Made by a program: the position numbers and the translations under genes. Shown one piece after another: positions 15,897 to 60,581 of a stretch of DNA of 64,000 bases (within the stretch, counting starts at the first letter, position 1; each line of letters begins with the position of its first letter). This DNA is from Acetofilamentum sp. (GTDB taxonomy: Bacteria; Hydrothermota; 32-111). The notes beneath the pieces are model-generated. The model did not search any database, was not told the origin of the DNA, and saw nothing but the letters and a program-made list of their open reading frames with translations. Location: contig DYMB01000001.1 of the NCBI GenBank assembly GCA_020721805.1, positions 243,149-307,148 of the forward strand. The letters are read 5' to 3'.

Positions 15897-18633
15897 GTTA
15901 AAAGATATTTTTCATAAAATTCATAAAAAAATAGTTTTTGATAATTTTATAGATAGCCTGCTTATTTTTACTTTTTGGGGAATAACATCGTTAGTAGTTT
16001 TTGCTTTCATAGATCTATTCTTCTACCATTCTGAAAAATTATTTTTACTTTTTATTTTATCTTCTTTGATTTTTTCCTTTAAAACTTTTTTCATTTTTTT
16101 GTTAAATGAAAGAGAATCTATAAAAAGATACAATCTTTTGAATAAAAATTTGAAAAATGTCCCACTCACGATCTATGAGAATATTGAAAAAAATAATGGT
16201 TATATTGAAATTCTAATGAAGAATTTCACAGAGGATACCATAAAGAAGAGTATTTTTTATGATCAAAAAAGAAGGGAGACGATTGTTAGAAAAAATTTTT
16301 TTATCCTTTCAGTTTTTTTGATTTTAATAATAATGTTTCCGTTAGTTTTTACCAACTTTTTTAATTTGACTGAAAAAATTGTTGTTTTGAAAGATTGCTC
16401 AAACAAGGTTAAGATTCTTTCATTCAACTATGGTAGCATAGTTGGAAAACTTCTTGTGACAAACGGTTCAGAATTTTTTCCCTATATCGATGGTATGGAT
16501 TATCCTTACGGTTTAAAGATCTTTTTCGTTGGTCCAAAAGTTCAATCGAATATTTTACCTGTGAAACTTTTGAAAGGTTTTAAAATAGATTCCATATCAA
16601 GTCTTGTTAAACCTTTAAAATATACAGGAGTAAAAAATTATAATGTATCCGGAAATATTTTTGATCTCCCTGAATTCTCAGATGTTGATGTTAAAATATC
16701 TTTTAACGACCAGACCCATCGGAAAATATTTTTTAAAAATTTATCCTCCGATAGTGTATATAAAATTTTTAAAGGGAAATATTCAGATTCGATTAAAATG
16801 AATGTTGTTAAAGATAACACTCCACAAGTTTTAATTCTGATGGATAAAAAAGATATTTCAGCAAAAAAATATTTAACGATACCTGTTATGTTTAAAGATG
16901 ATTACGGTATAGATTCTTTATATTTGATTTTGAAAAAAAATGATGATTCTCTAACTAAGGGATACAAATTTTATGGTCTTGATACCATTTTAATTTTTTC
17001 TTTAGATATGGAATCACTTACAGATTGTGAACAATTATATTTCAAGGGGAAAGATAACAATCCTGAAAGAAGACAACTCGGTTTTTCAGAAAGATTATAT
17101 TTAAAAGAAAACTTTTTGTTATCTTCAATTTATGATTCAACATATGTCAAAAACGAGTTTTTAAAAGATATTGATAGATTCTCTGAAAATGTTTACGATA
17201 TATTAACAAGGAAAGATAATTCGAATCTTGAAAAAAAGATCGAGGAGTATAGAGAAAGACTGAACGAATTGAAGGAGAATATTGAAAATGTTAAGAAGGA
17301 AATTAAAGATCTATCAGAATATAAAATACCAGATAAAATTTATAAAGGGATGTTTGAAATTAAAAAAGAGATAGAAAAACTTGATAAAAATTTACTTTCA
17401 AAACTTGATTCGATTTTGAAGAGTTCAAAAAAGATAGAAAACGATTTTGAAAGAAAAGAGATCCTCGAAAAAATAAAAAATCAGGACAGTTTAATCCAAA
17501 AAAATTTAGAAGAATTAAAAAAAATGATAAAGGATCTTAACACGCTTTTTTTACTGAACCAGATGAGGGAAGATATAGAAAAACTTTTACAGAAACAGGA
17601 TTCTATCATATCCAATGAAAACATAAAAGGTCAAGAAGAGATAACACGGTCTCTGGGAAAAATGAAAGAAAAAAGTTTAAAAGATTTGCAACTGAACGAA
17701 TTTGAAAAACCTATTGACGAAACATATAAACTTTCAAAAAAATCAGAAAAAGATCTTTCGGAACGAAAGAGAGTAAAAGAAAAATTGGAAAACTTAAAAA
17801 AGGATCTTGAGAAAAAAATTGAACAACTTGAGGGCAGCGAAAAAAGATATGATAAATATCTTGTAATATATTCTATACTTTTCATAAATGAGATTGTTGA
17901 TAGCACACAGGATAGGGAATTGATAAACGATCTGTATATGTCAATAATAGATTATGTTGATGAAAGCCCAACATCACCTTTGACAATACTTTTAAAAACA
18001 GCACAGAGGATTGTGGTTTTAAGTGAAGGTGATTTCACATCATTAAAAAAACATAACCTTTCTATAATTCTTTATCTTTTAAAAGAGAATCCATCAGGTG
18101 AATCTACCGGTTCTATGGAGGATATATCTGAAAAATTGTCAAAGATATCAGAAGAACAGATGAAGATCTCTCAGACACTCTGGGAAATGTTCAATAAAAG
18201 CGAAATTTCAAAAGATATGCTTGATATGCTTTCTGATCTTGAAAAAAAACTTTCTCAAAAGATGAAGGAAATTGGAGAAAAAACTGGAGATGATGTTGGT
18301 GAAAACATATCATCACTTGCTGATTCTTTGAAAGATGTATCGGAAGAGTTAAAAAAAGGAAATCTTGACGAAGAGATTCTAAAAAAACAGGAAAGAGTTT
18401 TAAAGAGGATGTTGAATTTAACAAAATCGATATACAGAAAAGGAATAGAGGAAAAAAGGGAGAGTAAAACTGGAAAAGATTACAACCTCCCATTCAGACT
18501 TATCACGCCGGAAGATTTTGGTTATAAAAAATATTGGGAATTGAAAAAAAAATATAAAAATATTTATGATTTTAAAAGAAAAGAATGGATACCTCTTTTA
18601 AAACTTTATTACAGGGAACTTATAAATGAATAG
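15895..18633 (+). CDS. Hypothetical 912 aa membrane-anchored coiled-coil protein (possibly DUF4175-like)
   Basis: Two N-terminal TM helices (LLIFTFWGITSLVVFAFIDLFF, LFLLFILSSLIFSFKTFFIFLL) and a third at ~aa 135. A beta-rich central region is followed by ~430 aa of K/E-rich heptad coiled coil. No enzymatic motif recognised. Confidence 0.5.
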   Translation: MLKDIFHKIHKKIVFDNFIDSLLIFTFWGITSLVVFAFIDLFFYHSEKLFLLFILSSLIFSFKTFFIFLLNERESIKRYNLLNKNLKNVPLTIYENIEKNNGYIEILMKNFTEDTIKKSIFYDQKRRETIVRKNFFILSVFLILIIMFPLVFTNFFNLTEKIVVLKDCSNKVKILSFNYGSIVGKLLVTNGSEFFPYIDGMDYPYGLKIFFVGPKVQSNILPVKLLKGFKIDSISSLVKPLKYTGVKNYNVSGNIFDLPEFSDVDVKISFNDQTHRKIFFKNLSSDSVYKIFKGKYSDSIKMNVVKDNTPQVLILMDKKDISAKKYLTIPVMFKDDYGIDSLYLILKKNDDSLTKGYKFYGLDTILIFSLDMESLTDCEQLYFKGKDNNPERRQLGFSERLYLKENFLLSSIYDSTYVKNEFLKDIDRFSENVYDILTRKDNSNLEKKIEEYRERLNELKENIENVKKEIKDLSEYKIPDKIYKGMFEIKKEIEKLDKNLLSKLDSILKSSKKIENDFERKEILEKIKNQDSLIQKNLEELKKMIKDLNTLFLLNQMREDIEKLLQKQDSIISNENIKGQEEITRSLGKMKEKSLKDLQLNEFEKPIDETYKLSKKSEKDLSERKRVKEKLENLKKDLEKKIEQLEGSEKRYDKYLVIYSILFINEIVDSTQDRELINDLYMSIIDYVDESPTSPLTILLKTAQRIVVLSEGDFTSLKKHNLSIILYLLKENPSGESTGSMEDISEKLSKISEEQMKISQTLWEMFNKSEISKDMLDMLSDLEKKLSQKMKEIGEKTGDDVGENISSLADSLKDVSEELKKGNLDEEILKKQERVLKRMLNLTKSIYRKGIEEKRESKTGKDYNLPFRLITPEDFGYKKYWELKKKYKNIYDFKRKEWIPLLKLYYRELINE

Positions 18634-19936
18634 AAATAAAAAGATAATTTTTATTTTTTTTCTTTTTCTTTCCTTTATTGGTCTTCTGGCAAAGGGAATA
18701 GAGGAAATTGTTAAAGATGGCGATTTTAAGATAATACTTAAAGAACTGGATGCATCTTCAAAAAAAGATAATATTTTGAAAATTATATTTTTAAATAGGG
18801 AGAGTTTTAAAAAACCTGATTATGAATATTTTTTGAGAAATCTGATAAAAAGGGATGGTGTTGTGGAAATCTACCTTTCATTATTCAAAAAGGATCGGAT
18901 AAAAGAGAATGAATATATTATATTTCTAAAATATTTTAAGGATAAAAATGATAAAAAATTATATTATGATTATATAGTTAGATTTTCTGATGAAAAAAAT
19001 CTTGATTACAAAAAATTGAGTGCTCAATTTGCAGCGGAGAGTAGACTTGAAGATCTATACGAACTGTTGCCCAATCACAACAGGTTAAAAGTTTACATTG
19101 CAGCAAGGCTCTTGTATAAAACAGGGAAGGAAGAATTTTCTAAATATATTTCAAAGAGTGGGAAAGAAAATATTCTGGACATATTTGAATCTGGCATCCT
19201 TAGTATGCAGAACAAAATTTTAATTTTAGAAAATGCTAAAAATAAAAATGTTATAGATAATAAACTGTCAGAAGATATCTTTAAGATATCTTTCTATGAT
19301 TTTAAAAAAGATTATACCGAATTTTTAAAAAATTCGAAATATGAGTTTTCGTATAGGAATTTTCGAAAAGTTTTTAAAAGTGAAGAGACATATTTATCAA
19401 GAGAGGATTCTTACTTCTATCCTTTGACACTTCTTTTTTTAAACAATTTCAATGATTTAAAGATTTTTCTTGAAAAGGATAAAACGATCGATCCTGAAAG
19501 AAGAATATATGTTTCTTTTCTTTTGAATCTTTTTTTATCAGATGAAGAAAGATCTTTTGATAACCTTATTAAACTTCTTTCATCTGGAGTTGATGATTTT
19601 GTAAAGTTAAGTGCTCTTGAATTTTATTTGGTTTCTAAAAAAATAAATGATGGAAAATTCCTGCAATACTATTTGATGGGTGATAGAGAGAATATGAAAC
19701 CCTTTATAAAAAGTATAGGGAAAAATTCTATTTTTTATTATGAGATGCTTGTAGAGGAAAAAAGATTTGATGAAATTAAACTTTTTAAATTTAAAAATTT
19801 TGAAAATGAGGCACTTATGACACAGATACTTGTTTACGATATAAAGAATGGTATGGTTGATAAATATGATATCGAAGAGTTTTTAAAAAAGTATCAGAAG
19901 AGTCCTTTTAAAAATCTGTTTATCAAATATTTATGA
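18626..19936 (+). CDS. Hypothetical secreted alpha-helical protein, 436 aa
   Basis: Signal peptide MNRNKKIIFIFFLFLSFIGLLA. Start overlaps the upstream stop (ATGAATAG). Helical-repeat-like composition with no recognised motif. Confidence 0.45.
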   Translation: MNRNKKIIFIFFLFLSFIGLLAKGIEEIVKDGDFKIILKELDASSKKDNILKIIFLNRESFKKPDYEYFLRNLIKRDGVVEIYLSLFKKDRIKENEYIIFLKYFKDKNDKKLYYDYIVRFSDEKNLDYKKLSAQFAAESRLEDLYELLPNHNRLKVYIAARLLYKTGKEEFSKYISKSGKENILDIFESGILSMQNKILILENAKNKNVIDNKLSEDIFKISFYDFKKDYTEFLKNSKYEFSYRNFRKVFKSEETYLSREDSYFYPLTLLFLNNFNDLKIFLEKDKTIDPERRIYVSFLLNLFLSDEERSFDNLIKLLSSGVDDFVKLSALEFYLVSKKINDGKFLQYYLMGDRENMKPFIKSIGKNSIFYYEMLVEEKRFDEIKLFKFKNFENEALMTQILVYDIKNGMVDKYDIEEFLKKYQKSPFKNLFIKYL

Positions 19937-21147
19937 AAAAAATATTTATAATTTTAATTTTTATTTCTTTAAAAATTTATCCTTACATTTTTATTCCTAT
20001 GGATGAAGAGCAGTCCGATCATCTCAGATCGTATGGTGTTGTTTTTAGAGCCTTGGAAGATAATGTTAAGGTAGAGTGGCTTTTAAACTACAGGGGAGGT
20101 AGTTTTATAATTCTATCAGATCTTTATGAAAAAGATTGTATAAAGAATGGTGTTCTTTTTTACAACATTTCTCAGGAGAGAAGGGAATATTTTAACTCTT
20201 TATGTGAAAAGATGGTTCTTCTCGAAAAAGCTCCAAAATTGGCAGTTTATTCTCCACCTGATAAGGAACCATGGGATGATGCTGTAACACTTGTTCTTGA
20301 TTATGTTGGGATAAAATATGATGTTATTTATGATAGGGAAGTGTTGAACGGAAAGATTTTTGAATACGATTGGTTGCATCTTCATCATGAAGATTTTACA
20401 GGGCAGTTTGATAGATTCTATATTTCTTCCTTTTATCAACCCTGGTTTAGAAAGATGTATAATATGAACAAACAGATAGCAAAAGACCTTGGTTATGATA
20501 AATACTGGAAAGTCAAAAGGGATGTGGCGGCGCAGATAAAAACTTATGTTTCAAATGGTGGATTTTTGTTTGCGATGTGTTCAGGGACGAATACTCTTGA
20601 TCTTGCATTATCGTTAGGTTATCAGGATATTATACCTTCAATACTCGATAACGATGGAACCCAACCGCCCACACCCGACTATTCGAAAACACTCGCATTT
20701 GAAAATTTTATGCTTAACGATAAACCTGACATTCAAATGGATGATATAGACTATGAACCTTCAGATAAAATGTCGTGGGAGAATAAAAAGTTTAAATTGA
20801 AAAAATTCTCACCAAAATTTGATCTCGTGGAAACGATGTTGACTCAGAACCATACCCAATTCATAAATGAATTTCTTGGAAGAACAACATCCTTTGATAA
20901 GAAAAAAATAAAAAAGAATGTCGTGATACTCGCTGATAGTTATGACCCGAAATATGCCAAATACATACATGGTTTTTTCAAAGATGGTTTTTTTACCTTT
21001 CTTGCAGGGCATGATCCTGAAGATTATGTTCACTATGTAAACGATCCACCAACTGATTTGCAATATTTTAAAAACTCTCCGGGATACAGACTCATTCTGA
21101 ACAATGTTCTTTTCCCCGCATCAAGGGAGAAAAAAAAGAAGACATAA
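19933..21147 (+). CDS. Hypothetical secreted protein, 404 aa, possibly class I glutamine-amidotransferase-like (DUF4159/ThuA-like) fold
   Basis: Signal peptide. The segment GGFLFAMCSGTNTLD resembles the nucleophile-elbow Cys of the GATase1/DJ-1 superfamily. ATGA overlap with the upstream gene. Confidence 0.4.
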   Translation: MKKIFIILIFISLKIYPYIFIPMDEEQSDHLRSYGVVFRALEDNVKVEWLLNYRGGSFIILSDLYEKDCIKNGVLFYNISQERREYFNSLCEKMVLLEKAPKLAVYSPPDKEPWDDAVTLVLDYVGIKYDVIYDREVLNGKIFEYDWLHLHHEDFTGQFDRFYISSFYQPWFRKMYNMNKQIAKDLGYDKYWKVKRDVAAQIKTYVSNGGFLFAMCSGTNTLDLALSLGYQDIIPSILDNDGTQPPTPDYSKTLAFENFMLNDKPDIQMDDIDYEPSDKMSWENKKFKLKKFSPKFDLVETMLTQNHTQFINEFLGRTTSFDKKKIKKNVVILADSYDPKYAKYIHGFFKDGFFTFLAGHDPEDYVHYVNDPPTDLQYFKNSPGYRLILNNVLFPASREKKKKT

Positions 21148-41428: not shown

Positions 41429-41502
41429 TGGGCGGTACTGGAGTCGAACCAGTGACCTCTTGCATGTCAAGCAAGCACTCTGACCATCTGAGCTAACCGC
41501 CC
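41429..41502 (-). tRNA. tRNA-Val (anticodon GAC)
   Basis: Reverse complement GGGCGGUUAGCUCAGAUGGUCAGAGUGCUUGCUUGACAUGCAAGAGGUCACUGGUUCGACUCCAGUACCGCCCA; anticodon loop UUGACAU. Confidence 0.9.
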
Positions 41503-41504
41503 CT

Positions 41505-41576
41505 CGTCTCCAACGGGAGTTGAACCCGTGTCGCAGCCTTGAAAGAGCTGTGTCCTAACCACTGGACGATGGAGAC
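41505..41576 (-). tRNA. tRNA-Glu (anticodon UUC)
   Basis: Reverse complement GUCUCCAUCGUCCAGUGGUUAGGACACAGCUCUUUCAAGGCUGCGACACGGGUUCAACUCCCGUUGGAGACG; anticodon loop CUUUCAA. Confidence 0.88.
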
Positions 41577-41577
41577 A

Positions 41578-42069
41578 TTATTTGTTTTTATGTGTTTTAA
41601 AATATATATTTCTAAAAACTTCGTTTTCCAGAAGAGCATCGTTTATTAAAAACCAGTTTTCAACTTCTCTGTTTGTACTTGCTATCCTCTCAGCGAGAAC
41701 CTCTGAAAGATTTAAGAAAAGTTTTGCTGCAATTTTACTGGAACCGTTTACAAGTTCTTCAATATTATCTCTTGAGATAACATAAAGATCCAGAATCGTA
41801 TTTGAAAGAACATTTGCTGACCTATATTCACCTCTTAAAATTCCCATCTCTCCAAAAAAATCACCTCTGCTTAGTGTTGCAAGATGAATTTTTTTACCTT
41901 TTCTTTCAATGAAAATTTCAACCTCACCATTTTGAATCAAAAAAAGTTCATTACCCCTATCTCCCTCTTTAAAGATAAAAACATTTGGTTGAAATCTTCT
42001 TATTTTCATAAAGGAAAGAAACCGGTCAATTTCATCTTTTTCAAAATTTGTAAAGAGCCTTGATTGCAT
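41578..42069 (-). CDS. Stand-alone cyclic-nucleotide-binding (cNMP/CAP-family) domain protein, 163 aa
   Basis: cNMP-binding beta-roll motifs IFKEGDRGNELFLIQNGEVEI and GDFFGEMGIL, with no HTH. RBS AGGAGA 5 nt upstream of the ATG. Flanked within 1-22 nt by tRNA-Glu and tRNA-Lys. Confidence 0.75.
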   Translation of the reverse strand: MQSRLFTNFEKDEIDRFLSFMKIRRFQPNVFIFKEGDRGNELFLIQNGEVEIFIERKGKKIHLATLSRGDFFGEMGILRGEYRSANVLSNTILDLYVISRDNIEELVNGSSKIAAKLFLNLSEVLAERIASTNREVENWFLINDALLENEVFRNIYFKTHKNK

Positions 42070-42091
42070 AAAAATCTCCTTAGATATAGTT

Positions 42092-42164
42092 TGAGCCGTA
42101 CTGGATTCGAACCAGTGACCCCCTGCTTAAAAGGCAGATGCTCTACCTACTGAGCTAACGGCCC
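42092..42164 (-). tRNA. tRNA-Lys (anticodon UUU)
   Basis: Reverse complement GGGCCGUUAGCUCAGUAGGUAGAGCAUCUGCCUUUUAAGCAGGGGGUCACUGGUUCGAAUCCAGUACGGCUCA; G2-U71 wobble, anticodon loop CUUUUAA. Confidence 0.88.
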
Positions 42165-42184
42165 AAAAAATTTTAGGAAAAATT

Positions 42185-49897: not shown

Positions 49898-50893
49898 ATG
49901 GATTTAAAAGAATATAAAGGCGTTCTGGTTTACATTGAAACAAGGTTTGGAAAAATTGAAAAAGTTTCATTTGAACTTCTTAACAAGGGAAGAGAACTTG
50001 CTGATAAAAAGAGAGTTGATCTGACTAGTCTTATAATAGGTTATGATGTTGAAAAATTTTCAGATGAACTCATAAAAAAGGGTTCGGATAAAGTTATACT
50101 TGTTGATGATGAAAGGCTAAAAGATTTTGTGGATTCAACATATTCCAATATTGTTGTTGATGTTGTAAAAAAGTATAAACCTGAAATCTTTATAGCGGGT
50201 TCAACAAATATAGGTAGATCTCTATTCCCAAGAGTTTCCGCAAAACTTTTAACAGGTCTTACAGCAGATTGTACCGAACTTGATATAGATCCAGAGGATG
50301 GGAAACTGTTGCAAACAAGACCAGCCGCAGGTGGATCGATAATGGCTACGATCGTAACTCCAAACAGAAGACCACAGATGGCAACCGTAAGACACAAAGT
50401 CTTTAAAGAGGCGATTATGGATCCGAAAAGAACCGGAATAGTCGAAAGGTTCTCTATAGAGGAAAGAATGATAGATAAAAGGGTCGAGTATCTTGGTTTC
50501 GAAAAAGATGAAACTCAGACTGTAAACCTTTCAGATGCTGATATCATAGTATCTGGTGGAAGAGGTTTAAAATCAAAAGATAATTTTAGTTTAATATTTG
50601 AACTGGCTGGTCTTCTTAACGGTGCCGTAGGTGCTTCAAGACCCTGTATAGATGATGGATGGTTACCATTCTCCCATCAGGTCGGTCAGACAGGTAAAAC
50701 GGTTTCTCCAAAACTTTATCTGGCTGTTGGAATATCTGGAGCCATACAGCATCTTGCAGGTATGAAATCTTCCGAAACTATAATCGCTATAAATAAGGAC
50801 CCAAACTCCCCAATTTTTCAGGTGGCTGATTATGGAATAGTTGGTGATCTTTTTGAGGTTGTGCCACTTCTTATAAAAAAGTTGAAAAGATGA
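49898..50893 (+). CDS. etfA: Electron transfer flavoprotein alpha subunit
   Basis: FAD-binding C-terminal domain: VSGGRGLKS, GASRPCIDDGW, QVGQTGKTVSPKLYLAVGISGAIQHLAGM. Confidence 0.88.
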   Translation: MDLKEYKGVLVYIETRFGKIEKVSFELLNKGRELADKKRVDLTSLIIGYDVEKFSDELIKKGSDKVILVDDERLKDFVDSTYSNIVVDVVKKYKPEIFIAGSTNIGRSLFPRVSAKLLTGLTADCTELDIDPEDGKLLQTRPAAGGSIMATIVTPNRRPQMATVRHKVFKEAIMDPKRTGIVERFSIEERMIDKRVEYLGFEKDETQTVNLSDADIIVSGGRGLKSKDNFSLIFELAGLLNGAVGASRPCIDDGWLPFSHQVGQTGKTVSPKLYLAVGISGAIQHLAGMKSSETIIAINKDPNSPIFQVADYGIVGDLFEVVPLLIKKLKR

Positions 50894-51597
50894 AAAAATA
50901 TTCAATAAGTGCGATGTTTCCCTGCTATAATGACAGGGAAACCATAAGTTTACTTATTGATAAGGTGAATTCAAAATTAAAACAATTTGCAGATGATTAC
51001 GAGATAATAGTTGTTGATGATTTTTCCACTGATGGTTCAAGAGAGATTTTACTTGAAAAATCAAAAGAGAATAAAAAGTTGAGATTGATCTTCCATGATA
51101 AAAATTTAGGCTATGGTTTAACGATAAGGGATGGATTGTTAAATGCTAAATTTCCCTATTTTTTTTATACAGATGGTGATGGGCAGTATGATCCTGATGA
51201 AATAGAAAAACTGATAAAATTTCTTGATGATGATATGGCCCTTGTTAACGGATATAAGATTTTAAGGAGGGATCCATTTTACAGGATAATAATAGGAAGA
51301 CTCTATAACCTTTTTATGAAATTTTTTTTTGGAATAAAACTTAAAGATATCGATTGTGATTTCAGGATAATTAAAAAAGATATCTTTAAAGATGAAAAAT
51401 TTATTTCAACCTCTGGAACCATATGTGTTGAAATGGTAAAAAAGATCGAATTGAAAAAGGGAAAGATAAAAGAGGTTGGTGTAAACCATTACAACAGAGA
51501 ATATGGTAATTCACAGTTTTTCAATTTTAAAAGATTATTTTTTGTTAGTTTTCATATTTTGATTTTATGGTATAATATTGTAGGTAAAAGGAGATAA
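50890..51597 (+). CDS. GT2 polyprenol-phosphate sugar synthase (DPM1/ArnC/CsbB-like)
   Basis: GT-A motifs VVDDFSTDGS and DGDGQYDP (DxD), with a C-terminal amphipathic/TM segment. ATGA overlap with etfA. Confidence 0.8.
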   Translation: MKKYSISAMFPCYNDRETISLLIDKVNSKLKQFADDYEIIVVDDFSTDGSREILLEKSKENKKLRLIFHDKNLGYGLTIRDGLLNAKFPYFFYTDGDGQYDPDEIEKLIKFLDDDMALVNGYKILRRDPFYRIIIGRLYNLFMKFFFGIKLKDIDCDFRIIKKDIFKDEKFISTSGTICVEMVKKIELKKGKIKEVGVNHYNREYGNSQFFNFKRLFFVSFHILILWYNIVGKRR

Positions 51598-51601
51598 TTT
51601 T

Positions 51602-52579
51602 ATGAAAACAAAAAAAATAAAATCTGTTCTTATAACCGGTGGTTTAGGTTTCATAGGTTTAAACCTTTCACAGTTTTTTATTCAAAAGGGGATTGAAGTT
51701 TTTGTTCTCGATTCAAAGAATGAAAATTCTGGTTATAACGAATTTCATCTACTTACCCTTAAGAAAAAAGGTTTGACTATAATTGAGGGGACGATAGGTA
51801 ATATTCATAAGCATAGAGAAATATTGAAAAATGTTGATTCTGTTGTTGACCTTGCCGGACTTATAGGACATCTTGATTCTATGAAAAATCCACTTGCTGA
51901 TATAGAGAATAATACTGTTGAACATATTAGATTTCTTGAAAATATCAAAGGATTTAAAATCTCTAAAATAGTTTACACTTCTACAAGACAGGTTTATGGG
52001 AAACAGGAGAAGATGCCTGTTGATGAAAATGCCACTGTAAAACCTCTTGATTTCAACGGGATCAACAAATATTCGACTGAATCATATTATTCGATATATT
52101 CAAAACACTTAAACTTTGATGTCGTGATTTTGAGATTATCAAACATATATGGTGAAGGTATGCATATAAGGGATAAAAGGTTATCATTTTTGGGTTGGTT
52201 TATGAACAGGATCATAACAAATAATCCTATAGAAATTTTTGGTGATGGCTTAAATGTTAGAGATCTTCTCTATGTTGGAGATCTTGTAAATACAATATAC
52301 AATTCACTTGTTATGGATGTTTCCGGAATTTTCAATGTTGGTTCAGATAAAACATTCACTCTTAAAAGAATTGCCGAAATTCTTGTTGATTTGAATCCTA
52401 AATCTTCAATAATCTATGTTCCCTTTCCTGACGTTTTGAAAAACATAGATATTGGTTCTTTTATAATAGATAATTCGAAAGCAAAAAATCTACTTGAACA
52501 CAGAGAAATTGTTAGTATAGAGGAAGGGTTGAAAAAAACTTATGAATACTTCCAAAAATATAAAGGATATTATCTATGA
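51602..52579 (+). CDS. NAD-dependent epimerase/dehydratase (extended SDR) acting on a nucleotide sugar
   Basis: Rossmann motif VLITGGLGFIGLNL. Length 325 aa. Sits in a sugar-modification cluster. Confidence 0.75.
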   Translation: MKTKKIKSVLITGGLGFIGLNLSQFFIQKGIEVFVLDSKNENSGYNEFHLLTLKKKGLTIIEGTIGNIHKHREILKNVDSVVDLAGLIGHLDSMKNPLADIENNTVEHIRFLENIKGFKISKIVYTSTRQVYGKQEKMPVDENATVKPLDFNGINKYSTESYYSIYSKHLNFDVVILRLSNIYGEGMHIRDKRLSFLGWFMNRIITNNPIEIFGDGLNVRDLLYVGDLVNTIYNSLVMDVSGIFNVGSDKTFTLKRIAEILVDLNPKSSIIYVPFPDVLKNIDIGSFIIDNSKAKNLLEHREIVSIEEGLKKTYEYFQKYKGYYL

Positions 52580-53643
52580 TACCTTTTACTCAATTGAACA
52601 GGAATAAAGAGGAATTTAAAAGAATAAAAAAAGAACTGGATAATTTTTATAAAAAAGGGAAGTTTATTCTTGGAGATTATAACAGTGAGTTTGAAAATCT
52701 TTTTGGAAAGTTTATAGGTAAAAAATATGTTGTTGGAACAGGTAACGCAACCGATTCTTTATATCTTATCCTTAGAATATTAAAAGCCAAAAAGGTTGGA
52801 GTGTGCGCTTCGAGTCCTTTACCATGTGGACAGGCGATAAAAATGGCTGGTTGTGAGATGGTTCTTTTTGATACCTATCCAGATTCAGGATTGGTTAATA
52901 TCGAGCAGTTTCAAAAATCTAGAAAAAAAATAGATCTCTTTCTTGCGGTTCATCTATATGGACAGGCTGAAAGGATTGAAATATTGAAAGATGTTTGTGA
53001 TAGAAAGGGAATAGTTCTTGTTGAGGATTGTTCACAATCAATAGATACCTATATCGATGGGAAACATACAGGCTCCAACTCTGTCTTGTCAGCATTTTCA
53101 TTCTATCCAACGAAAAATTTAGGATGCTATGGTGATGGGGGAGCTATTGCAACAGATGATTTTAAATTGTACACAATGCTTCAAAAGATGAGAAATTATG
53201 GTCAGAAAGAGATATACTCTTCAGAAATGGAAGGGATAAACAGTAGACTCGATGAAATTCAGGCACTCGTTTTAATTGAAAAACTTAAAAGTCTAAAGAA
53301 AAAAAATGACAAAAGAAGGGAAATAATAAGGAAATATTATGATGGAATAAAAAATAAATATGTATCTTTTCCTTCGGAAAGATATTATAAAACTTCAAAT
53401 GGTCATATCTTCCCAATATTTTCACAAAGAAGGGATCAACTTAAAGAGCATCTTTTAAAACAGGGTATAATCACAGCGATCCATTATCCTTATCCTTTAC
53501 ATAAACAAAAATATTTTTATCAGGATATAATTTTGAAAAACTCGGAAAAACTTTCAAAAAGAGAACTTTCACTACCGATTTTTCCTGAAATGACGGATAA
53601 TGAGGTTTTAGAGGTTATAAAAGGAGTAAACTCTTTTAAATGA
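52576..53643 (+). CDS. DegT/DnrJ/EryC1/StrS (ArnB-like) PLP-dependent sugar aminotransferase
   Basis: Signature AFSFYPTKNLGCYGDGGAIATDD, containing the PLP-Lys region. Confidence 0.85.
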   Translation: MIPFTQLNRNKEEFKRIKKELDNFYKKGKFILGDYNSEFENLFGKFIGKKYVVGTGNATDSLYLILRILKAKKVGVCASSPLPCGQAIKMAGCEMVLFDTYPDSGLVNIEQFQKSRKKIDLFLAVHLYGQAERIEILKDVCDRKGIVLVEDCSQSIDTYIDGKHTGSNSVLSAFSFYPTKNLGCYGDGGAIATDDFKLYTMLQKMRNYGQKEIYSSEMEGINSRLDEIQALVLIEKLKSLKKKNDKRREIIRKYYDGIKNKYVSFPSERYYKTSNGHIFPIFSQRRDQLKEHLLKQGIITAIHYPYPLHKQKYFYQDIILKNSEKLSKRELSLPIFPEMTDNEVLEVIKGVNSFK

Positions 53644-54359
53644 GAAACAAAGAATTTGATAATGTTTTTAAAATTGAAGAGAACCATTTCTGGTTTATCA
53701 ACAAAAGAAGAATCGTTGATTTTTATTTGAAAAAATATTATAAAGATGGTTTGATACTCGACTCAGCATGTGGAACTGGAAGGGATATAAAAGATTTAAA
53801 GGATGCGATAGGAATGGATTATAGTTTCGATGGTTTACTACTGGCTTACAATTATTGCAAAAGTTTGGTTAACGGTGATGCAAACTTTTTACCTTTTAAA
53901 GATAAAACTTTTTCAATTATTTTTTCGTTCGATTTAATACAACATAAAAGTATTGATATAGATAAAGTTTTAAGAGAGTATAACAGAGTTTTAAAGAAGG
54001 GTGGATATGTTTTTTTGAACCTTCCAATGTTTAACTTTTTATATAGTAATCATGATAATGTTGTTGAAACTTCAAAAAGATTTTCTACCAGAGATTTTAA
54101 AATTTTTAAATCTTATGGTTTTACCATCAAAGAAAAATCTTTCTGGAATTTTTTATTTTTCCTTCCTATAATTTTTTATAGAAAGGTAATATCAAATTTT
54201 TTATCATATGATGAATATTCCGATGTTAGACCTCTTAAACCTTCTATGAATAAAGTTTTTGATAGACTGTTTAAATTTGAATTTTTTCTTTTCAAAATGG
54301 GTTTTATTCCTGTTGGAGTTTCATCATTTGTTGTTTTAAGTAAACAGGTTGACCTATAA
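53640..54359 (+). CDS. Class I SAM-dependent methyltransferase
   Basis: Motif I ILDSACGTGRD and motif post-I/II (LKKGGYVFLN). ATGA overlap with the aminotransferase. Confidence 0.7.
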   Translation: MRNKEFDNVFKIEENHFWFINKRRIVDFYLKKYYKDGLILDSACGTGRDIKDLKDAIGMDYSFDGLLLAYNYCKSLVNGDANFLPFKDKTFSIIFSFDLIQHKSIDIDKVLREYNRVLKKGGYVFLNLPMFNFLYSNHDNVVETSKRFSTRDFKIFKSYGFTIKEKSFWNFLFFLPIIFYRKVISNFLSYDEYSDVRPLKPSMNKVFDRLFKFEFFLFKMGFIPVGVSSFVVLSKQVDL

Positions 54360-54382
54360 TTTTTCAATATTATAATAAAAAT

Positions 54383-56500
54383 ATGATAAGAATATTGAAA
54401 AAGACGATTTTTCTATTTTTTTTCATCCTTTTCTTTTTTAAAATTTTCACAGGTTATGGTATAATTGATGGAGATTTTCTTGATGAATATGTCCCTAAAT
54501 TTTTTCTTTTAAAAAATTCTTTTCACTCTTTTAAATTCCCTATTTATGAAAAATCTTTTGGATTAGGTTTTCCCATATACAAAGATATACAATCCGGCAT
54601 TTTTTATCCATTAAACTGGCTTGTAATGTTACCTTTTGATTTTATGTTTATGGTTCATATTATTATTCTGTTAAATGTTTTGATACTATTTTTTGGTATC
54701 TATAAACTTTTAAAAAGGTTAAAAATTGAAAATGACTTTTCTTTATTACTTTCGCTTATTTTTACCTTTTCTTCTTTTACGATCTCCCATATTCCACACT
54801 ATACCATAATCGCTTCTCTTACCGTCCTGCCTTATGTTTTAATTTCGCTTATAGATTTTTTCGAAAAACAAAATAAAAAAAGTTTTATACTTACAGTTAT
54901 CCTCTTTTTGCTTCAATTAGCAGCGGGGCATCCTCAGATATTTTTTTACACTCTTCTACTTTCCTTTTTTATTTTTTTAATACGGTACAGAAACTTTAAA
55001 AATTTTCTTTATCTTTTTATACTATTATTCTTCTCTTTCTTTGTTTCACTCTTTATCATAATCCCAACTTTTGAAGTATTCAAATTCTCATACAGAATGG
55101 ATCTTAACTATAACACTATTCCTGTGAAATATTTGATTTTAACACTCTTTCCAGATCTTTTTGGCGGAGTTTCAACAATTTTTAAAAGAGCGTATGATGG
55201 TTTGTCAAATATAAATGAAACTTCATTTTATTTTTCTTTACTCTTCTTTTTTTCACTATCCTTTTCGATATATGATATTTTTGTTAACGGAAACCTGAAA
55301 AGTTTAAAAAAATATTTATTACCACTCTTTTTTCTATCAATATCTTTTCTGGATTTTATCTATTTAAAAATTTTTTTAACACCCTATAGGGCTCTATCAA
55401 TTTCGATAGGCATTTTTCTTTTACTCTTTTTACCAGAAATGTTGAAAAAAATGGAAAAAAAGTTTTTACTCTTTTCAATTCTTTTTTTTACCTTCCTACT
55501 TCTTTTTATTTTGTTGAGAAGTTTTTCATTTAGAAGATATATGATAACAATTTTATTTTTTATATGCTATATCTTGTTTTTTCATTTTGTGTGGTTAAAA
55601 GAAGATTATGGGAAAGATTTTAAAATCTTATTTCTTTCTGTTATCATACTTTTGGATCTCTTTGTTTTAACAGGTAATATTATAAAATTTGAAAAAATGG
55701 AAAAAATAAAAAATGTTCCATACGATGAACTTTCGGGTAAGTATATTTTAACCTTTATACCTGAAGATATACTCTTTTATAAAGAGTATATAAAAGAATA
55801 TTTTGATGTTTACGATCTTGAAGTTCTAAAAAAATATTCAACATATGGTAACAGAGGGATATACTATTCATCATATTCTTTCAACCTATATCAAAATTTT
55901 ACTTTTAAAAAGTATGTTGAATTTTTTGATGATCCATCCATAATGACGGGTGGTTTTTCAAATCTCAATTTTATACTCAATCCTCTTTATCTGGATTATG
56001 ATTATGTTTTTGTTCCCGATGTTCCTATAATACTTAAAGTTAAAGATTTTTTGAGAATCGATTTCAAAACTGGATTCAGGGATACTCTGTTAATTTTTTA
56101 TGATGGGGATTTTGATGGTCTTGAACCTTTACCCATAAAGGAGCCATACCTGAAAGATATAAAGGATTTAAAAAGTTCTATAATCTATGTTGAAAAGGAT
56201 TTAAGGTTTTTCGGGAAAGGTGAAATTTATATGATTAAAAAATTGAATACCGGTAAAATACTCCATTTTCCATACATTTTTGAAAATTCTGGTTTTGAAA
56301 CTCTTTCAAAAGATCCTTTTTATCTTTTCAAAAAGAATGGTGAAAGAAAAAATAAAAATTATATAACAAATCCTGTTGATGGCAGTTTTGTTGATGAAAA
56401 AAGACTCAAGTTTATTCCCTACGATCTTTTAATGGGATTTCTCGTTTCAATTATTTCCTTTATCGTTTTATTATATTATTCAAAAAAGGAGTTTGGATGA
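54383..56500 (+). CDS. Polytopic GT-C-fold membrane glycosyltransferase (ArnT/PMT/YfhO-like), 705 aa
   Basis: >=12 predicted TM helices. First extracytoplasmic loop carries a DE motif (GIIDGDFLDEYVP) as in GT-C polyprenol-P-sugar transferases. Large C-terminal soluble domain. Downstream of the GT2 synthase. Confidence 0.6.
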   Translation: MIRILKKTIFLFFFILFFFKIFTGYGIIDGDFLDEYVPKFFLLKNSFHSFKFPIYEKSFGLGFPIYKDIQSGIFYPLNWLVMLPFDFMFMVHIIILLNVLILFFGIYKLLKRLKIENDFSLLLSLIFTFSSFTISHIPHYTIIASLTVLPYVLISLIDFFEKQNKKSFILTVILFLLQLAAGHPQIFFYTLLLSFFIFLIRYRNFKNFLYLFILLFFSFFVSLFIIIPTFEVFKFSYRMDLNYNTIPVKYLILTLFPDLFGGVSTIFKRAYDGLSNINETSFYFSLLFFFSLSFSIYDIFVNGNLKSLKKYLLPLFFLSISFLDFIYLKIFLTPYRALSISIGIFLLLFLPEMLKKMEKKFLLFSILFFTFLLLFILLRSFSFRRYMITILFFICYILFFHFVWLKEDYGKDFKILFLSVIILLDLFVLTGNIIKFEKMEKIKNVPYDELSGKYILTFIPEDILFYKEYIKEYFDVYDLEVLKKYSTYGNRGIYYSSYSFNLYQNFTFKKYVEFFDDPSIMTGGFSNLNFILNPLYLDYDYVFVPDVPIILKVKDFLRIDFKTGFRDTLLIFYDGDFDGLEPLPIKEPYLKDIKDLKSSIIYVEKDLRFFGKGEIYMIKKLNTGKILHFPYIFENSGFETLSKDPFYLFKKNGERKNKNYITNPVDGSFVDEKRLKFIPYDLLMGFLVSIISFIVLLYYSKKEFG

Positions 56501-59238
56501 TGAAAAAAATATTATTATTTTTTGTCATATCGTTGCAGATTATGCTTTATGCGAATAAGACCAACAGGGCTGATTATTATTTTGATGTTGAACTTGATGA
56601 TAAAAACAGGATAATAAGAGGTTATGCTGATATCGTTTACAAAAATTTTACTCAGGATACTTTAAAAGATATGGTTTTTCATCTTTATGCCAACCTTTTT
56701 AGAAAGGATGGTGATTTTTTAAAAAGAAAAATAAAATCGTCCTGGGAAGGTTATACACGGATAGATTCGATACTCGAAGAGAATGAAAGAAACGATTCTT
56801 TTAGAGTTGATAAAACTCTTGGATACTTGAAATTGAAAAATTATATTTTGCCTTATGATTCTTTAAAACTGAGAATATATTTTGAAAATAAAGTTCCATA
56901 TCCATTTTTAAGGGAGGGCTATTCGAAAGGAGAGTACAATATTTCGCAATGGTATCCAAAGGTTGCTGTTTATAAAGATGGTAAATGGGCTCAATTTCAG
57001 GCAAGCAGAGAGAGTGAATTTTTCAACGAGTATGGTGATTATTATCTGAAAATAAGGTTGCCAAAAAAATATTTTCTTTTTGGAACCGGGGATGCCATCT
57101 ATCCTGATGAGGATAAAAAGTTTCTCGACTCCCTTCTTTATGATGAAAAATTGAAATACAAAATGAACACAAACGATTCTTTAAAAATAGTTGAACTTCA
57201 CGCTTTGAATGTTAACGATATGGCTTTTATTCTTGTAAATGATTTTTCCTATCTGAAGAAAGAAAAGAACGGAATAACAGTTGAAATAGCTTGTAGAAAG
57301 AGAAATTTTAAATATTACAAAGAACTTATTGAAAAGGTCCACGGGATACTGGATTTCTATTCCAACCTCTATTTCCCATATCCATATTCAAAAATCACCA
57401 TAGTCGATGGGCTGTTGAGAGCAGGTGGAGGTATGGAATATCCCCAGTTTATAGTTATGGGTCCTATTTTATCTATAGATAGAAAGTTTAGAAATATAGT
57501 AAGGTATGAATACCTTGAGGATGTTATTTCCCATGAAATCGCACATCAATGGTTTTATCTAATGATAGGATCAAATGAGGCGATGGAACCTTTTCTGGAT
57601 GAAGGTTTTGCAACATATTCACAGATAACCTATATGGAAAATAGGTATGGTGAAAAAAACCAGTTAACACTTTTTAATAGAAAAGTTTACGATCTCTTTA
57701 CAACACATTATTTGAATTTTTTAAATTTACAGAAAAACAAAAAGGGTGTGCCTATAAACTATTCTTCCTTTGATACTAAAAAAGATAATTATACCATTTT
57801 CTATTCAAAGGGATATCTGATAATTAAGAAAATTGAAGATATCGTCTTGAAGGATAGTTTTAAAATTTATATTAAAGATTTTTTTAAAGAGTACAAATTT
57901 ACTCATCCAAGTATAGATGAGTTTTTTAAATTTATTAACGAGAGGAGTGGTGGAAAATATCAACATTCTTTAAAATCTCTTCTTTATGAAAATATTTATA
58001 CCGATTACTGTTTTGAAAAAATTTCACAGGGAAAGGAAAAGAATAAGTATGTCTTGAAAAATCTTTATCCCATAGATCTACCGGTTGATGTAAAATTTAT
58101 TATGAAGGATGGAGAATCTTTCGTTAAAAGAGTTGATGTGCAAAAGGATACCATAATGTTTGAAAAGAAGTCGATGAGTAATATAACGATAGATCCAGAA
58201 AAGAGTTCTCTCGATATAAACTATTTTAACAATTCCATAAAACCCCAGTTTAAAATTCACACATTCTTTGAAATTTTTGAGATAGATAAAAACAATCTTT
58301 ATTTTTATCCATTCTTTGATTACACGATTCTTGACAAATTCACTCCGGGTGTTAAAACAAAAATTTTTGATCTTTTAAAAATATCATCCCCATATTTCAA
58401 CCTGATCGGAGATTATTCTATAGATATTTTTACAGGTTATAACATAAAAAATGAGAGTTTCTATTTGAAATTTGATTTAAACACTTTTCAGGAAAACAGA
58501 GTTGGTAATGGAATCTACTTGAAATATTCAAAAGAGTTTGTAAACTTCACACCAAAATTTTTCTATTTTCTTAACGAAAAGGATTTTGGTCAAAATATAT
58601 TGATATCTTACAATTTTAGAAAAAGTTTATCTCCATCAGATTATTATATATACCTTTTCCCACAAGGGAAAATAGGATCTATGGATCTTAACTATAATTT
58701 TTATAAAAATTTATCCCAAGGTAAAATAAGAGGGGAAATTAGTCTTAACTTCTATGATAAAATAATATATTCTGATTTTAATTCAGTGGATTTAAAAACT
58801 GGTTTAAACTATGATTTTAATTTAAGTAGATTTAATATAGATCTGGGTTATGATTTTGAATTTTTAAAGGGAGAAAATAATAGCCTGACATCTATAAATT
58901 TATATTCCAGAAGATGGAGTTTTTTTGATCGTTACACTTTGAATTTTTCAAACTATCCTATCACTCTAAACGATATAGCCGGAGGATATGGGTATCTTAC
59001 TGATACGACCCAGACCTTTAAATATTTGAATAGATTCAGAGTCAAGATAAACTTTATATATCAAGATTTAATTATCGCTGGAAAAGATAAGCCTGAAATA
59101 TTTTATCAAACCGGATTGATTTTTAATTTCTTTGATCTTATGACATTGCAGATACCTCTTTACAATAAAGATAAGGGTTTTATAGTTAAAGATAGATTAG
59201 ATATGCTTTTCGATTTTAAATTTATAAAAAACTTTTGA
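56497..59238 (+). CDS. M1-family zinc metallopeptidase (gluzincin) fused to a C-terminal ~350-aa outer-membrane beta-barrel-like domain
   Basis: Signal peptide MMKKILLFFVISLQIMLYA. Zinc motif HEIAHQWFYLMIG...E (HExxH + E) and GGMEYP exopeptidase-like motif. The C-terminal third is Y/F/N-rich amphipathic beta strands and ends ...DMLFDFKFIKNF with a C-terminal Phe, an OMP beta-signal. ATGA overlap with the GT-C gene. Confidence 0.6.
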   Translation: MMKKILLFFVISLQIMLYANKTNRADYYFDVELDDKNRIIRGYADIVYKNFTQDTLKDMVFHLYANLFRKDGDFLKRKIKSSWEGYTRIDSILEENERNDSFRVDKTLGYLKLKNYILPYDSLKLRIYFENKVPYPFLREGYSKGEYNISQWYPKVAVYKDGKWAQFQASRESEFFNEYGDYYLKIRLPKKYFLFGTGDAIYPDEDKKFLDSLLYDEKLKYKMNTNDSLKIVELHALNVNDMAFILVNDFSYLKKEKNGITVEIACRKRNFKYYKELIEKVHGILDFYSNLYFPYPYSKITIVDGLLRAGGGMEYPQFIVMGPILSIDRKFRNIVRYEYLEDVISHEIAHQWFYLMIGSNEAMEPFLDEGFATYSQITYMENRYGEKNQLTLFNRKVYDLFTTHYLNFLNLQKNKKGVPINYSSFDTKKDNYTIFYSKGYLIIKKIEDIVLKDSFKIYIKDFFKEYKFTHPSIDEFFKFINERSGGKYQHSLKSLLYENIYTDYCFEKISQGKEKNKYVLKNLYPIDLPVDVKFIMKDGESFVKRVDVQKDTIMFEKKSMSNITIDPEKSSLDINYFNNSIKPQFKIHTFFEIFEIDKNNLYFYPFFDYTILDKFTPGVKTKIFDLLKISSPYFNLIGDYSIDIFTGYNIKNESFYLKFDLNTFQENRVGNGIYLKYSKEFVNFTPKFFYFLNEKDFGQNILISYNFRKSLSPSDYYIYLFPQGKIGSMDLNYNFYKNLSQGKIRGEISLNFYDKIIYSDFNSVDLKTGLNYDFNLSRFNIDLGYDFEFLKGENNSLTSINLYSRRWSFFDRYTLNFSNYPITLNDIAGGYGYLTDTTQTFKYLNRFRVKINFIYQDLIIAGKDKPEIFYQTGLIFNFFDLMTLQIPLYNKDKGFIVKDRLDMLFDFKFIKNF

Positions 59239-59300: not shown

Positions 59301-60581
59301 ATGAAAAAATCAACTTTCATTATATTTTTTTTAATTTGTATAATTATAATTTTGTTGATAAATTCTGTAATAATTTTAAAGTTTTCTCCTTCAAAGGAAA
59401 AAGGCATGGAAACTAATATTAAGGATATTTTAACAAAGGAGAGAATAGAATCTGGTTTTAGCATCGCAGATGTGATAAGCAATGCTGTTCTTGAACCTTT
59501 ACTTTATGAGGATGAAGCACCAATAATGGATATTGTTGTGAATACTGTAAAAAATTCAAACGGTTTATTAGATTATATAATAGTTATCGATGATAAAGGG
59601 CTCGTCTTTGGTGATTCAAAACAGCCCTTGAATGTTTTAAAACCTTTTAACGATCCTTCTATAAACCTTTTGAAAAGTGAAAACAGGCAGGTTCAGGATA
59701 AAGGAAAAGATTATTACGATCTGGGGCTTTCTATAAAAACTGGTGATAAGAAGAGAGGTGAAATACATCTTGGTTTGAAAAAGGTTTCATTTGAAGAAAA
59801 AACGGAAAAATCTTCTGGCTCGTCTATAATTATTGTAGGGATAACATTTATTCTTGGTATCGTTTTGGCTTTAATATTCTCATTAACAATCTCTTCGAAA
59901 CTTTCAGAAGGGAAGGATTTTGTCAATTTAAGGTCTGCGAAGATAGATGGATTAAGAAAACAGGAAGATGAATTGCAAAAAAGTTTAGCATCCAAAAATA
60001 ATGAGATCAAAAGTAAAGAACAAAAAATATCTGAACTTGAAAAGAAGATAAAGGAGACAGGTTCAAAATATGATGAGGTCGATAGAATAATAAGGGAGAG
60101 CGAACAGGAAATTGAGGAAAAAAAGAAACAGGTAGAGTTTTATGAGAATAAAATATCTGAACTTGTAGAAAAACAAAAAAGTTTAAAAGAGCAGATAGAT
60201 AAGGTAAAAGAGAACGAAACCATCAATGTTGAAGCGGAAAAACTTAAAAATCAGATATCCAATCTTGAAATTCAACTTCAGCAGATAATAAATAATATCG
60301 AAGCGAAAAGAAATGAGGAAAAGAATCTTCTGGAAAGAATAAATCAACTTAAGACACAGGCTTCTTCCATACCTCAGAATGGAAGCATAGGTGCTGTGAT
60401 AGGCACTGAACTGGAAAAGAAAAAGAAAGAGGAATTTGAAATAACACAGAGAATAGTTGCAAAAAGGAAAGAAGAAATAGCCATATCACAAAGGCTTGAA
60501 TTAAAAAGAAAAAAAGAACTTGAACTTACAGGACGTTTGGAAATGCTCGAAAAGAAATTAAAAGAGATGGGGAATGGTTGA
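59301..60581 (+). CDS. Hypothetical bitopic membrane protein with a periplasmic sensor-like domain and a cytoplasmic coiled coil, 426 aa
   Basis: TM1 FIIFFLICIIIILLINSVIIL, ~150 aa extracytoplasmic domain, TM2 IIIVGITFILGIVLALIFSL, then ~230 aa K/E-rich coiled coil. No kinase/HAMP/GGDEF output recognised. RBS AAGGAG upstream. Confidence 0.5.
   Translation: MKKSTFIIFFLICIIIILLINSVIILKFSPSKEKGMETNIKDILTKERIESGFSIADVISNAVLEPLLYEDEAPIMDIVVNTVKNSNGLLDYIIVIDDKGLVFGDSKQPLNVLKPFNDPSINLLKSENRQVQDKGKDYYDLGLSIKTGDKKRGEIHLGLKKVSFEEKTEKSSGSSIIIVGITFILGIVLALIFSLTISSKLSEGKDFVNLRSAKIDGLRKQEDELQKSLASKNNEIKSKEQKISELEKKIKETGSKYDEVDRIIRESEQEIEEKKKQVEFYENKISELVEKQKSLKEQIDKVKENETINVEAEKLKNQISNLEIQLQQIINNIEAKRNEEKNLLERINQLKTQASSIPQNGSIGAVIGTELEKKKKEEFEITQRIVAKRKEEIAISQRLELKRKKELELTGRLEMLEKKLKEMGNG

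Follow-up and report, generated by a model that had tools for sequence, protein, structure and literature searches.

A 64,000-nucleotide stretch of the genome of Acetofilamentum sp. (assembly GCA_020721805.1, contig DYMB01000001.1, positions 243,149 to 307,148 of the forward strand; hereafter the window) contains a single open reading frame (ORF) which very probably encodes a Sec-exported M1-type zinc peptidase covalently joined to a β-barrel (Table 1; hereafter the M1-barrel protein). An AAGGAG-like Shine-Dalgarno sequence lies just ahead of the ORF, which begins with ATG and contains no internal stop codon. The start of the ORF overlaps the stop codon of an ORF for a 705-aa membrane protein as ATGA (ggATGAtg, …GGATGATGAAA…). 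A 100 % identical protein is present in the NCBI collection. The N-terminus, MMKKILLFFVISLQIMLYA followed by NK, represents a typical Sec leader of the signal peptidase I (SPase-I) type, with residues 2-18 modelled as a helix by AlphaFold2 (AF2), and the absence of a lipobox Cys rules out a lipoprotein. Homologues begin with equivalent hydrophobic leaders, and the start of their mature proteins is conserved (TNRADY or WQQxVxY). A preliminary description of the locus had noted the M1 signature, the signal peptide, the barrel-like C-terminal composition and the terminal FDFKFIKNF, all of which are present in the sequence. It had also proposed that peptidase and barrel constitute one gene, as borne out by the single ORF and by colinear homologues down to ~21 % identity; a frameshift separating two genes was not observed. 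Its layout of two modules could be retained, whereas the proposed limits (~520 and ~350 aa) had to be replaced by those in Table 1.

Table 1. Features of the M1-barrel gene and the adjoining upstream gene; positions refer to the window
Feature	Residues	Position	Strand	Basis
Whole gene, putative M1 peptidase/Omp85-type barrel fusion, 913 aa	1-913	56497..59238, stop codon included	+	single ORF
Sec signal peptide, SPase-I type	1-19	56497..56553	+	read from sequence
M1 domain I (N-terminal β-domain)	~24-266	56566..57294	+	
M1 catalytic (thermolysin-like) domain	~268-500	57298..57996	+	Pfam PF01433, PDB sequence matches
GGMEYP, variant of GXMEN exopeptidase motif (Asn to Tyr)	311-316	57427..57444	+	aligns to GAMENW of aminopeptidase N
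Zinc site HEIAH-X18-E	346-350, 369	57532..57603	+	aligns to HELAHQW...NEGFA of aminopeptidase N
Tyr436 (FYSKG)	436	57802..57804	+	aligns to SYSKG of aminopeptidase N
Small six-stranded β-sandwich, at position of M1 domain III, not POTRA	504-565	58006..58191	+	AF2 secondary structure
Conserved junction, signature IDP...NN (D566, N578, N579)	566-598	58192..58290	+	alignment
Predicted Omp85-type transmembrane β-barrel, ~16 membrane strands	599-907	58291..59217	+	
Long L6-like loop with hairpin 813-826, degenerate lid-lock AGGYGY	793-842	58873..59022	+	strand/loop map
β13-like strand IYQDLIIAG, degenerate FxDxG, D857 only kept	854-862	59056..59082	+	alignment
705-aa polytopic membrane protein, GT-C-like (weak evidence), coupled by ATGA		54383..56500	+	ORF; context only

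The N-terminal module could be assigned to peptidase family M1. Pfam Peptidase_M1 (PF01433) matches residues 279-485 with 73.7 bits (E=2.2e-20; cut-off, 27.7 bits), and PDB sequence matches of the M1 region comprise aminopeptidase N (APN), ERAP2 and PSA at 1e-11 to 1e-9. In an alignment of 54 family sequences reaching down to 21 % identity, the zinc-site residues H346, E347, H350 and E369 as well as Y436 are invariant, and HExxH-X18-E is found in 175 of the 188 full-length family members used for motif counts. Tyr436 is presumably the counterpart of the transition-state-stabilising tyrosine, a role taken over from established M1 enzymology. The HEXXH-X18-E site, the profile match above threshold, the catalytic tyrosine and the fold of domains I and II all agree with the definition of the family; the GXMEN motif deviates, with its Glu retained and a Tyr in place of the Asn. 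Asn and Glu of this motif position the substrate N-terminus in M1 enzymes. Residues G312, M313, E314, Y315 and P316 are invariant across the 54 aligned sequences, GGMEYP is present in 148 of the 188 full-length members and GxMEN in none of them. In aminopeptidase A, the GXMEN Asn sets exopeptidase specificity, according to a reference cited in PMC10343166. Since the Asn is a Tyr here and GxMEN occurs in none of the 188 members, aminopeptidase specificity of the M1-barrel protein is not assured, and from the earlier designation as M1 zinc aminopeptidase only the M1 zinc peptidase is retained.

The catalytic domain is followed by a small β-sandwich (strands 504-511, 515-522, 530-536, 541-546, 552-556 and 560-565 in the AF2 model, without any helix). 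A helical domain IV of the ERAP1_C type yielded no Pfam match, and the model shows the sandwich followed by the barrel in its place. Two-domain M1 enzymes likewise lack domain IV, as indicated by references 83-84 of PMC10343166 and by PDB 6a8z. The enzyme module resembles these two-domain proteins. The closest M1 systems known are the two-domain enzyme of Deinococcus radiodurans (M1dr, PDB 6a8z) and short M1 enzymes of the LTA4H and cold-active aminopeptidase type; however, these enzymes are soluble and carry GXMEN, whereas the M1-barrel protein possesses GGMEYP, a signal peptide and a membrane barrel. The lid-less active site together with the altered GXMEN suggests a substrate range broader than, or unlike, classical N-terminal trimming.

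Over the last ~315 residues, which end in FDFKFIKNF, F, Y and N are abundant, and A and E are scarce. The predicted barrel strands are antiparallel and 9-15 residues long, most of them displaying a dyad hydrophobic pattern. They are connected by turns of 2-4 residues on one side and by longer loops on the opposite side, two of which span 14 residues (including a short helix) and 50 residues (including a hairpin). The full-length AF2 model built from the 54-sequence alignment (predicted local distance difference test, pLDDT, 88.8; predicted template modelling score, pTM, 0.85) and an independent model of residues 570-913 built from a 30-sequence alignment (pLDDT 87.6; pTM 0.82) agree with each other, both being confident and yielding the same picture. 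Omp85 transmembrane barrels rank first by two structure-comparison methods, and no autotransporter barrel is among the structural matches listed. These predictions support a closed transmembrane β-barrel of Omp85 topology with 16 strands, a count in which residues 813-826 are taken for a hairpin within a loop and not for two further membrane strands. The transmembrane barrel proposed in the preliminary description is thus retained, its nature being that of a divergent Omp85-superfamily barrel in place of a generic or autotransporter-type outer-membrane protein; a soluble β-sandwich (such as an ERAP-like domain IV) instead of a barrel is not supported by models and structure comparison. Of the two halves, the N-terminal one retrieved Peptidase_M1, and the C-terminal 393 residues matched nothing in Pfam or NCBIfam. 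The terminal Phe, previously regarded as a signal for the β-barrel assembly machinery (BAM), is present in the 913-aa protein and is not a family trait; it is weak evidence for such a signal, because only 66 of the 188 full-length members end in F. Better conserved is the junction preceding the barrel, with D566 in 52, N578 in 51 and N579 in all of the 54 aligned sequences, and the NN motif in 165 of the 188 full-length members.

Relatives at 59 % identity stem from metagenome-assembled genomes of 'candidate division TA06/WOR-3', and proteins of Stahlbacteria/WOR-3 share 33-41 % identity. Overall, hundreds of homologues of 890-1030 aa were retrieved from WOR-3, Zixibacteria, Marinimicrobia/Fidelibacterota and Bacteroidota, the latter including Saprospiraceae, Crocinitomicaceae and the cultivated Aurantibacillus circumpalustris. 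PF01433 is the sole annotation on these homologues, and their database label reads just 'M1 family metallopeptidase'. A barrel-only profile searched against 1.84 billion representatives (E≤1e-3) matched at least 1,455 clusters at 50 % identity. The best 150 matches are mostly proteins of 850-1050 aa with the barrel in C-terminal position. Ten short matches (380-549 aa) were inspected, and all ten lack a signal peptide and carry sequence upstream of the barrel, for which reason they are read as 5'-truncated M1 fusions. Neither a stand-alone barrel nor another fusion partner was seen among the best 150 of the 1,455 clusters and the ten short matches inspected. The question whether related genomes encode one or two genes is thereby answered in favour of a conserved fusion, with no separate barrel genes among the short matches inspected. 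The M1-barrel fusion represents a large coherent family across the Fibrobacterota-Chlorobiota-Bacteroidota (FCB) group and is not peculiar to the Acetofilamentum genome.

Kinship of the barrel with the Omp85 superfamily was assessed on the level of sequence profiles. The barrel of the 913-aa protein has no match in Pfam or NCBIfam, 30 family barrels have none in Pfam, and the family barrel profile retrieved no PDB sequence at E≤10. A subgroup of 12 motif-bearing family barrels, to which the window protein does not belong, aligned by hhalign with a combined BamA+TamA barrel profile over 296 columns, i.e., about the whole barrel, with a probability of 83 % (score 47.7, P 8.8e-6). The same subgroup scored 32.7 against TamA alone (P 7e-4) and 30.6 against BamA alone (P 0.0019). 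Among the controls, the reversed BamA+TamA profile scored 17.7 (P 0.19), the barrels of LptD, FhuA, LamB and OmpF 13-15 (P 0.46-0.71), and 20 profiles obtained by shuffling the BamA+TamA columns 10-16 (P 0.31-0.93). The Omp85 reference profile is shallow (number of effective sequences, Neff, ~1.9), the BamA barrels gathered being from Enterobacteriaceae only and at least 81 % identical. When the whole-family barrel was compared with single E. coli BamA or TamA, only the FxDxG/β13-16 region aligned, without significance (E~0.14).

The lid-lock motifs of Omp85 proteins read (V/I/L/M)RG(F/Y/W) in L6 and (F/G)xDxG in β13. Distant family members carry an L6-like motif (GDGNMRGYQ, ALRGAV or SRGFGF) that corresponds to the (V/I/L)RG(F/Y) of L6, and two strands further on (β13) they display FADAG or FxDxG, followed by GxGxxxxL…P. 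The window protein has AGGYGY where these relatives have (L/M)RG(Y/F), and YQDLI where they have FxDxG; its own clade lacks the Arg of L6 as well as the F and G of β13. D857 is kept in 50 of the 54 aligned sequences, and hhalign pairs the strand IYQDLIIAG with FWDMG of BamA and FVDSG of TamA. POTRA domains were not found: PF07244 gave no match, and in the AF2 model the pre-barrel segment consists of the all-β sandwich and the short junction rather than of the β-α-α-β-β arrangement. The noNterm, WD40 and 'Metallo' subfamilies of Omp85 proteins also lack POTRA (PMC4104836). Taken together, membership in the Omp85 superfamily as a divergent, POTRA-less barrel is supported in the structural and evolutionary sense, whereas in the strict Pfam/POTRA sense the protein does not belong to the Omp85 family.

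Among known systems, the members of the Omp85 superfamily (BamA, TamA, Sam50, Toc75, TpsB/FhaC) differ from the M1-barrel protein, which has no POTRA, no match to PF01103 or PF03865, an enzyme as its N-terminal module, a lid-lock that is degenerate in the window's clade and ~5-12 % sequence identity to them. Closer in layout are the patatin-Omp85 proteins PlpD/FplA, known as type Vd, and the 'Metallo' (PF00149) and WD40 subfamilies of Heinz & Lithgow 2014, all of which carry a non-POTRA domain N-terminal to an Omp85-type barrel (PMC11116518; PMC4104836). PlpD, however, combines a patatin domain with one POTRA, whereas the M1-barrel protein contains an M1 zinc peptidase and neither patatin nor POTRA; the barrels of PlpD, 'Metallo' and WD40 proteins are detected by the Pfam Omp85 model, whereas that of the M1-barrel protein, found only in FCB-group lineages, is not. 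Type Va autotransporter proteases likewise unite an N-terminal protease and a C-terminal outer-membrane barrel in one polypeptide, but possess 12 strands (PF03797) and an α-helical pore linker. Identity of the M1-barrel protein as a type Va autotransporter was rejected on the grounds of a lacking PF03797 match, the ~16 strands and the absence of a predicted linker helix.

Heinz & Lithgow distinguished ten Omp85/TpsB subfamilies, including noNterm proteins and non-POTRA fusions with WD40, patatin and PF00149 ('Metallo'); M1 (PF01433) is not among them (PMC4104836), and later work repeats this classification (PMC11358297). That survey relied on Pfam detection of the barrel (PMC4104836), which fails for the M1-barrel family, and the family may for this reason have gone unnoticed in earlier surveys. 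A recent structure paper on the Bacteroidota BAM does not mention a peptidase fusion. In agreement with the preliminary description, no account of an M1-Omp85 or M1-barrel fusion was found in the literature covered, a result that is suggestive, most subscription journals lying outside this coverage. The architecture is apparently overlooked and widespread, and extends known principles rather than breaking them. In Aurantibacillus circumpalustris (CP121197), the start of a gene for a 249-aa PF00149 Metallophos protein (10081-10830 of the extracted locus, L005) overlaps the stop of the M1-barrel gene; PF00149 is the domain fused to Omp85 barrels in the 'Metallo' subfamily of Heinz & Lithgow (PMC4104836), a correspondence that may be coincidence.

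With respect to genomic context, the M1-barrel gene terminates a co-directional string comprising plsX-fabHDG-fabF, rnc, etfBA and an Arn-like sugar-modification cassette (50890-56500). The latter consists of tightly packed or overlapping genes for a family 2 glycosyltransferase (GT2), an NAD-dependent epimerase/dehydratase, a DegT/EryC1 aminotransferase, an S-adenosylmethionine-dependent methyltransferase and the 705-aa protein, and is kept in three relatives (L001-L003). The 705-aa protein yielded sub-threshold Pfam matches only (YfhO 0.0042, DUF6541 0.0049, GT-C_AftD 0.03) and no match in NCBIfam or PDB. Cassette and start/stop overlap (ATGA or 8 nt) are conserved in relatives at 59 % and 35 % identity, the arrangement being present in L002 and L003. 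Thus, of the translational coupling to a GT-C glycosyltransferase described earlier, the overlap stands, whereas the GT-C identity of the partner remains below threshold. Around members of another WOR-3 lineage and of Bacteroidota the linkage is absent, the neighbours there being unrelated housekeeping genes, and no neighbourhood is conserved across the family beyond the window's own WOR-3 clade. The glycosyltransferase link is real but clade-specific and, therefore, cannot explain the family. L001 (a JGI contig) and L002 encode an identical 914-aa M1-barrel protein; the upstream GT-C-like gene is intact in L002 (5891-8008, 705 aa), and L001 harbours at this place (5868-8008) a 328-aa remnant and a small ORF on the opposite strand, which could reflect a frameshift, a pseudogene or an assembly error. 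Directly downstream of the M1-barrel gene, 59301-60581 encode a 426-aa protein with an N-terminal transmembrane segment, a weak Cache-like region, a second transmembrane segment and a coiled coil of ~230 residues. It has SMC-like low-complexity matches only, and a 427-aa gene occupies the same place in L001 and L002, not in L003.

Exported proteins are encoded in a further cluster of the window (1850-10863), which contains S8 subtilases of 717 and 1614 aa. The larger one carries fn3/Big domains and a C-terminal sorting domain (Por_Secre_tail/CHU_C) of the type IX secretion system (T9SS), and a 602-aa protein of this cluster matches Por_Secre_tail weakly (E=3.5e-4), short of the Pfam cut-off. 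From its gene content, Acetofilamentum sp. appears to be a diderm with type IX secretion. The M1-barrel protein lacks a Por_Secre_tail or CHU_C sorting domain according to Pfam and was on this basis ruled out as T9SS cargo.

On balance, the M1-barrel protein is probably a barrel-anchored periplasmic M1 peptidase. Its catalytically competent enzyme module, composed of domains I and II and the small β-sandwich and devoid of lid domain IV, would be attached to a POTRA-less Omp85-superfamily barrel inserted in the outer membrane, which would serve mainly as a permanent anchor. The peptidase would join β1 at the point where POTRA5 joins BamA, and would be suspended on the periplasmic side of the outer membrane, where its active site, devoid of a lid, could cleave peptides or unfolded proteins of the envelope near the membrane. 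We infer outer-membrane insertion, orientation, anchor role and substrate class from the features described above. The attachment of the M1 module to the N-terminus of β1, as mapped by homology, and the position of the long loops opposite the 2-4-residue turns make a periplasmic location of the module the most likely one, and judged by itself this orientation is likely; any specific substrate can be named with less assurance. Decay of the L6/β13 lid-lock in the window's clade argues against an insertase or translocase and suggests an anchor. The proposed arrangement is also supported by the T9SS proteases of the window, which represent a separate route of protease export. A precedent is the patatin-Omp85 fusion PlpD, for which experiments located the enzyme domain in the periplasm, with the barrel as its scaffold (PMC11116518).

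Several points weigh against this interpretation. The barrel of the 913-aa protein matches no sequence profile of Pfam, NCBIfam or PDB directly, and the whole-family profile is not significant against BamA or BamA+TamA (P=0.022 to 0.15; BamA+TamA, 0.022), significance being reached with the subgroup of 12 sequences that excludes the window protein. Barrel closure, the position of L6 and the face bearing the M1 module are predicted, and the strand count depends on how the hairpin within the L6-like loop is treated. The proposed orientation relies on homology and loop-length parity, and for all family members localisation, activity and substrates are putative assignments from sequence. Finally, the conserved operon link to the GT-C-like protein in this clade is unexplained by a periplasmic anchor.

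Surface display of the M1 module, as considered in the preliminary description, would require the barrel to export its own N-terminal part in a type Vd or two-partner-like manner for digestion of external peptides or proteins, possibly with subsequent release. Translocation of polypeptides is indeed carried out by the Omp85-family barrels TpsB/FhaC, and the structural matches include FhaC; Heinz & Lithgow considered surface delivery for enzyme-Omp85 fusions (PMC4104836); and WOR-3 and Bacteroidota forage on protein and peptides with many exported proteases. Nevertheless, this orientation is not supported by the analysis and is unlikely, as by homology the N-terminal module joins β1 on the periplasmic side and the prototype PlpD keeps its enzyme domain in the periplasm (PMC11116518). 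POTRA, used by TpsB and type Vd proteins for translocation, is missing, the L6 and β13 motifs are degenerate in the window's clade, and the passenger would be a three-domain zinc enzyme of ~570 residues with just the 33-residue junction in place of a predicted helical or extended pore-spanning linker. In addition, exported proteases of this organism use T9SS sorting domains, of which the M1-barrel protein has none. Doubtful to a still higher degree is a working Omp85 insertase or translocase in which the M1 module takes the place of POTRA for binding clients or trimming their N-termini. This idea is attractive for those clades that keep RGY and FxDxG; most distant members retain (L/M)RG(Y/F) and FxDxG, on which BamA function depends. 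Retention of the fusion across several phyla suggests cooperation of the halves, and the periplasmic zinc peptidase BepA of E. coli works at BAM on LptD (PMC8423444). In the window's clade, however, L6 has lost its Arg and β13 its F and G, no partner or client gene is conserved alongside across the family, and a POTRA domain is lacking.

The M1-barrel protein might also be a target or partner of glycosylation, with the GT-C-like protein transferring to it an undecaprenyl-linked amino sugar produced by the operon, or with both acting on an envelope glycoconjugate, a possibility that is compatible with the other readings. The overlap (ATGA or 8 nt) and the cassette of GT2, epimerase, DegT aminotransferase and methyltransferase conserved at 59 % and 35 % identity speak for it. 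However, the linkage is absent from the other WOR-3 and Bacteroidota members, the GT-C assignment does not reach the Pfam thresholds and finds no match in NCBIfam or PDB, the cassette equally resembles pathways of lipid or polysaccharide modification, and one contig (L001) combines a broken GT-C-like gene with an intact M1 gene. The glycosylation target envisaged in the preliminary description is thus not supported and is regarded as improbable. Practically negligible is the chance of an artefact, i.e., of a soluble C-terminal β-sandwich or of an assembly error or frameshift joining two genes. It could be invoked because no sequence family matches the C-terminal region and its structure is a predicted one, but it is contradicted by the identical protein and the hundreds of colinear homologues from independent assemblies and sources, by the agreement of two confident AF2 models, by two structure-comparison methods ranking Omp85 barrels first, by the Omp85-specific profile signal with its negative controls, and by the short matches being truncated M1 fusions rather than separate barrel genes.

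Omp85 proteins are the core outer-membrane building machines of bacteria, mitochondria and chloroplasts. The M1-barrel family widens the known range of this superfamily: PlpD demonstrates reuse of an Omp85 barrel as enzyme scaffold, to which the M1-barrel proteins would add an abundant, peptidase-bearing and POTRA-less version. Lid-lock motifs kept in some of its clades and lost in others provide a natural series. Within the M1 family, the proteins would constitute a branch anchored by a membrane barrel, in which the exopeptidase motif is consistently altered. In a group to which major bacteria of the gut and the environment belong, an outer-membrane-tethered protease would moreover be a candidate for the quality control of envelope proteins or the processing of peptides; cultivable Bacteroidota species are among the carriers. 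It is tentatively proposed that the M1-barrel proteins form an unrecognised POTRA-less Omp85 subfamily, vertically maintained as a widespread envelope protease of the FCB group, whose barrel would place a lid-less zinc peptidase at the outer membrane. Its substrates might be proteins of the outer membrane or the surface that are nascent or misfolded, and its role quality control or maturation instead of nutrition.

Elsewhere in the window, a block of low GC content (15895-21147; ~26 % versus ~32 % for the window) contains three consecutive same-strand ORFs of 912, 436 and 404 aa without Pfam match. The 912-aa ORF (15895-18633) was considered as a paralogue of the M1-barrel gene and rejected despite its near-identical length. 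Clusters of tRNA genes (Val-Glu, Lys; Leu-Phe) are located on the minus strand at 41429-42165 and 1604-1763. Around 42 kb the cumulative GC skew turns, and the genes change there from minus to plus orientation.

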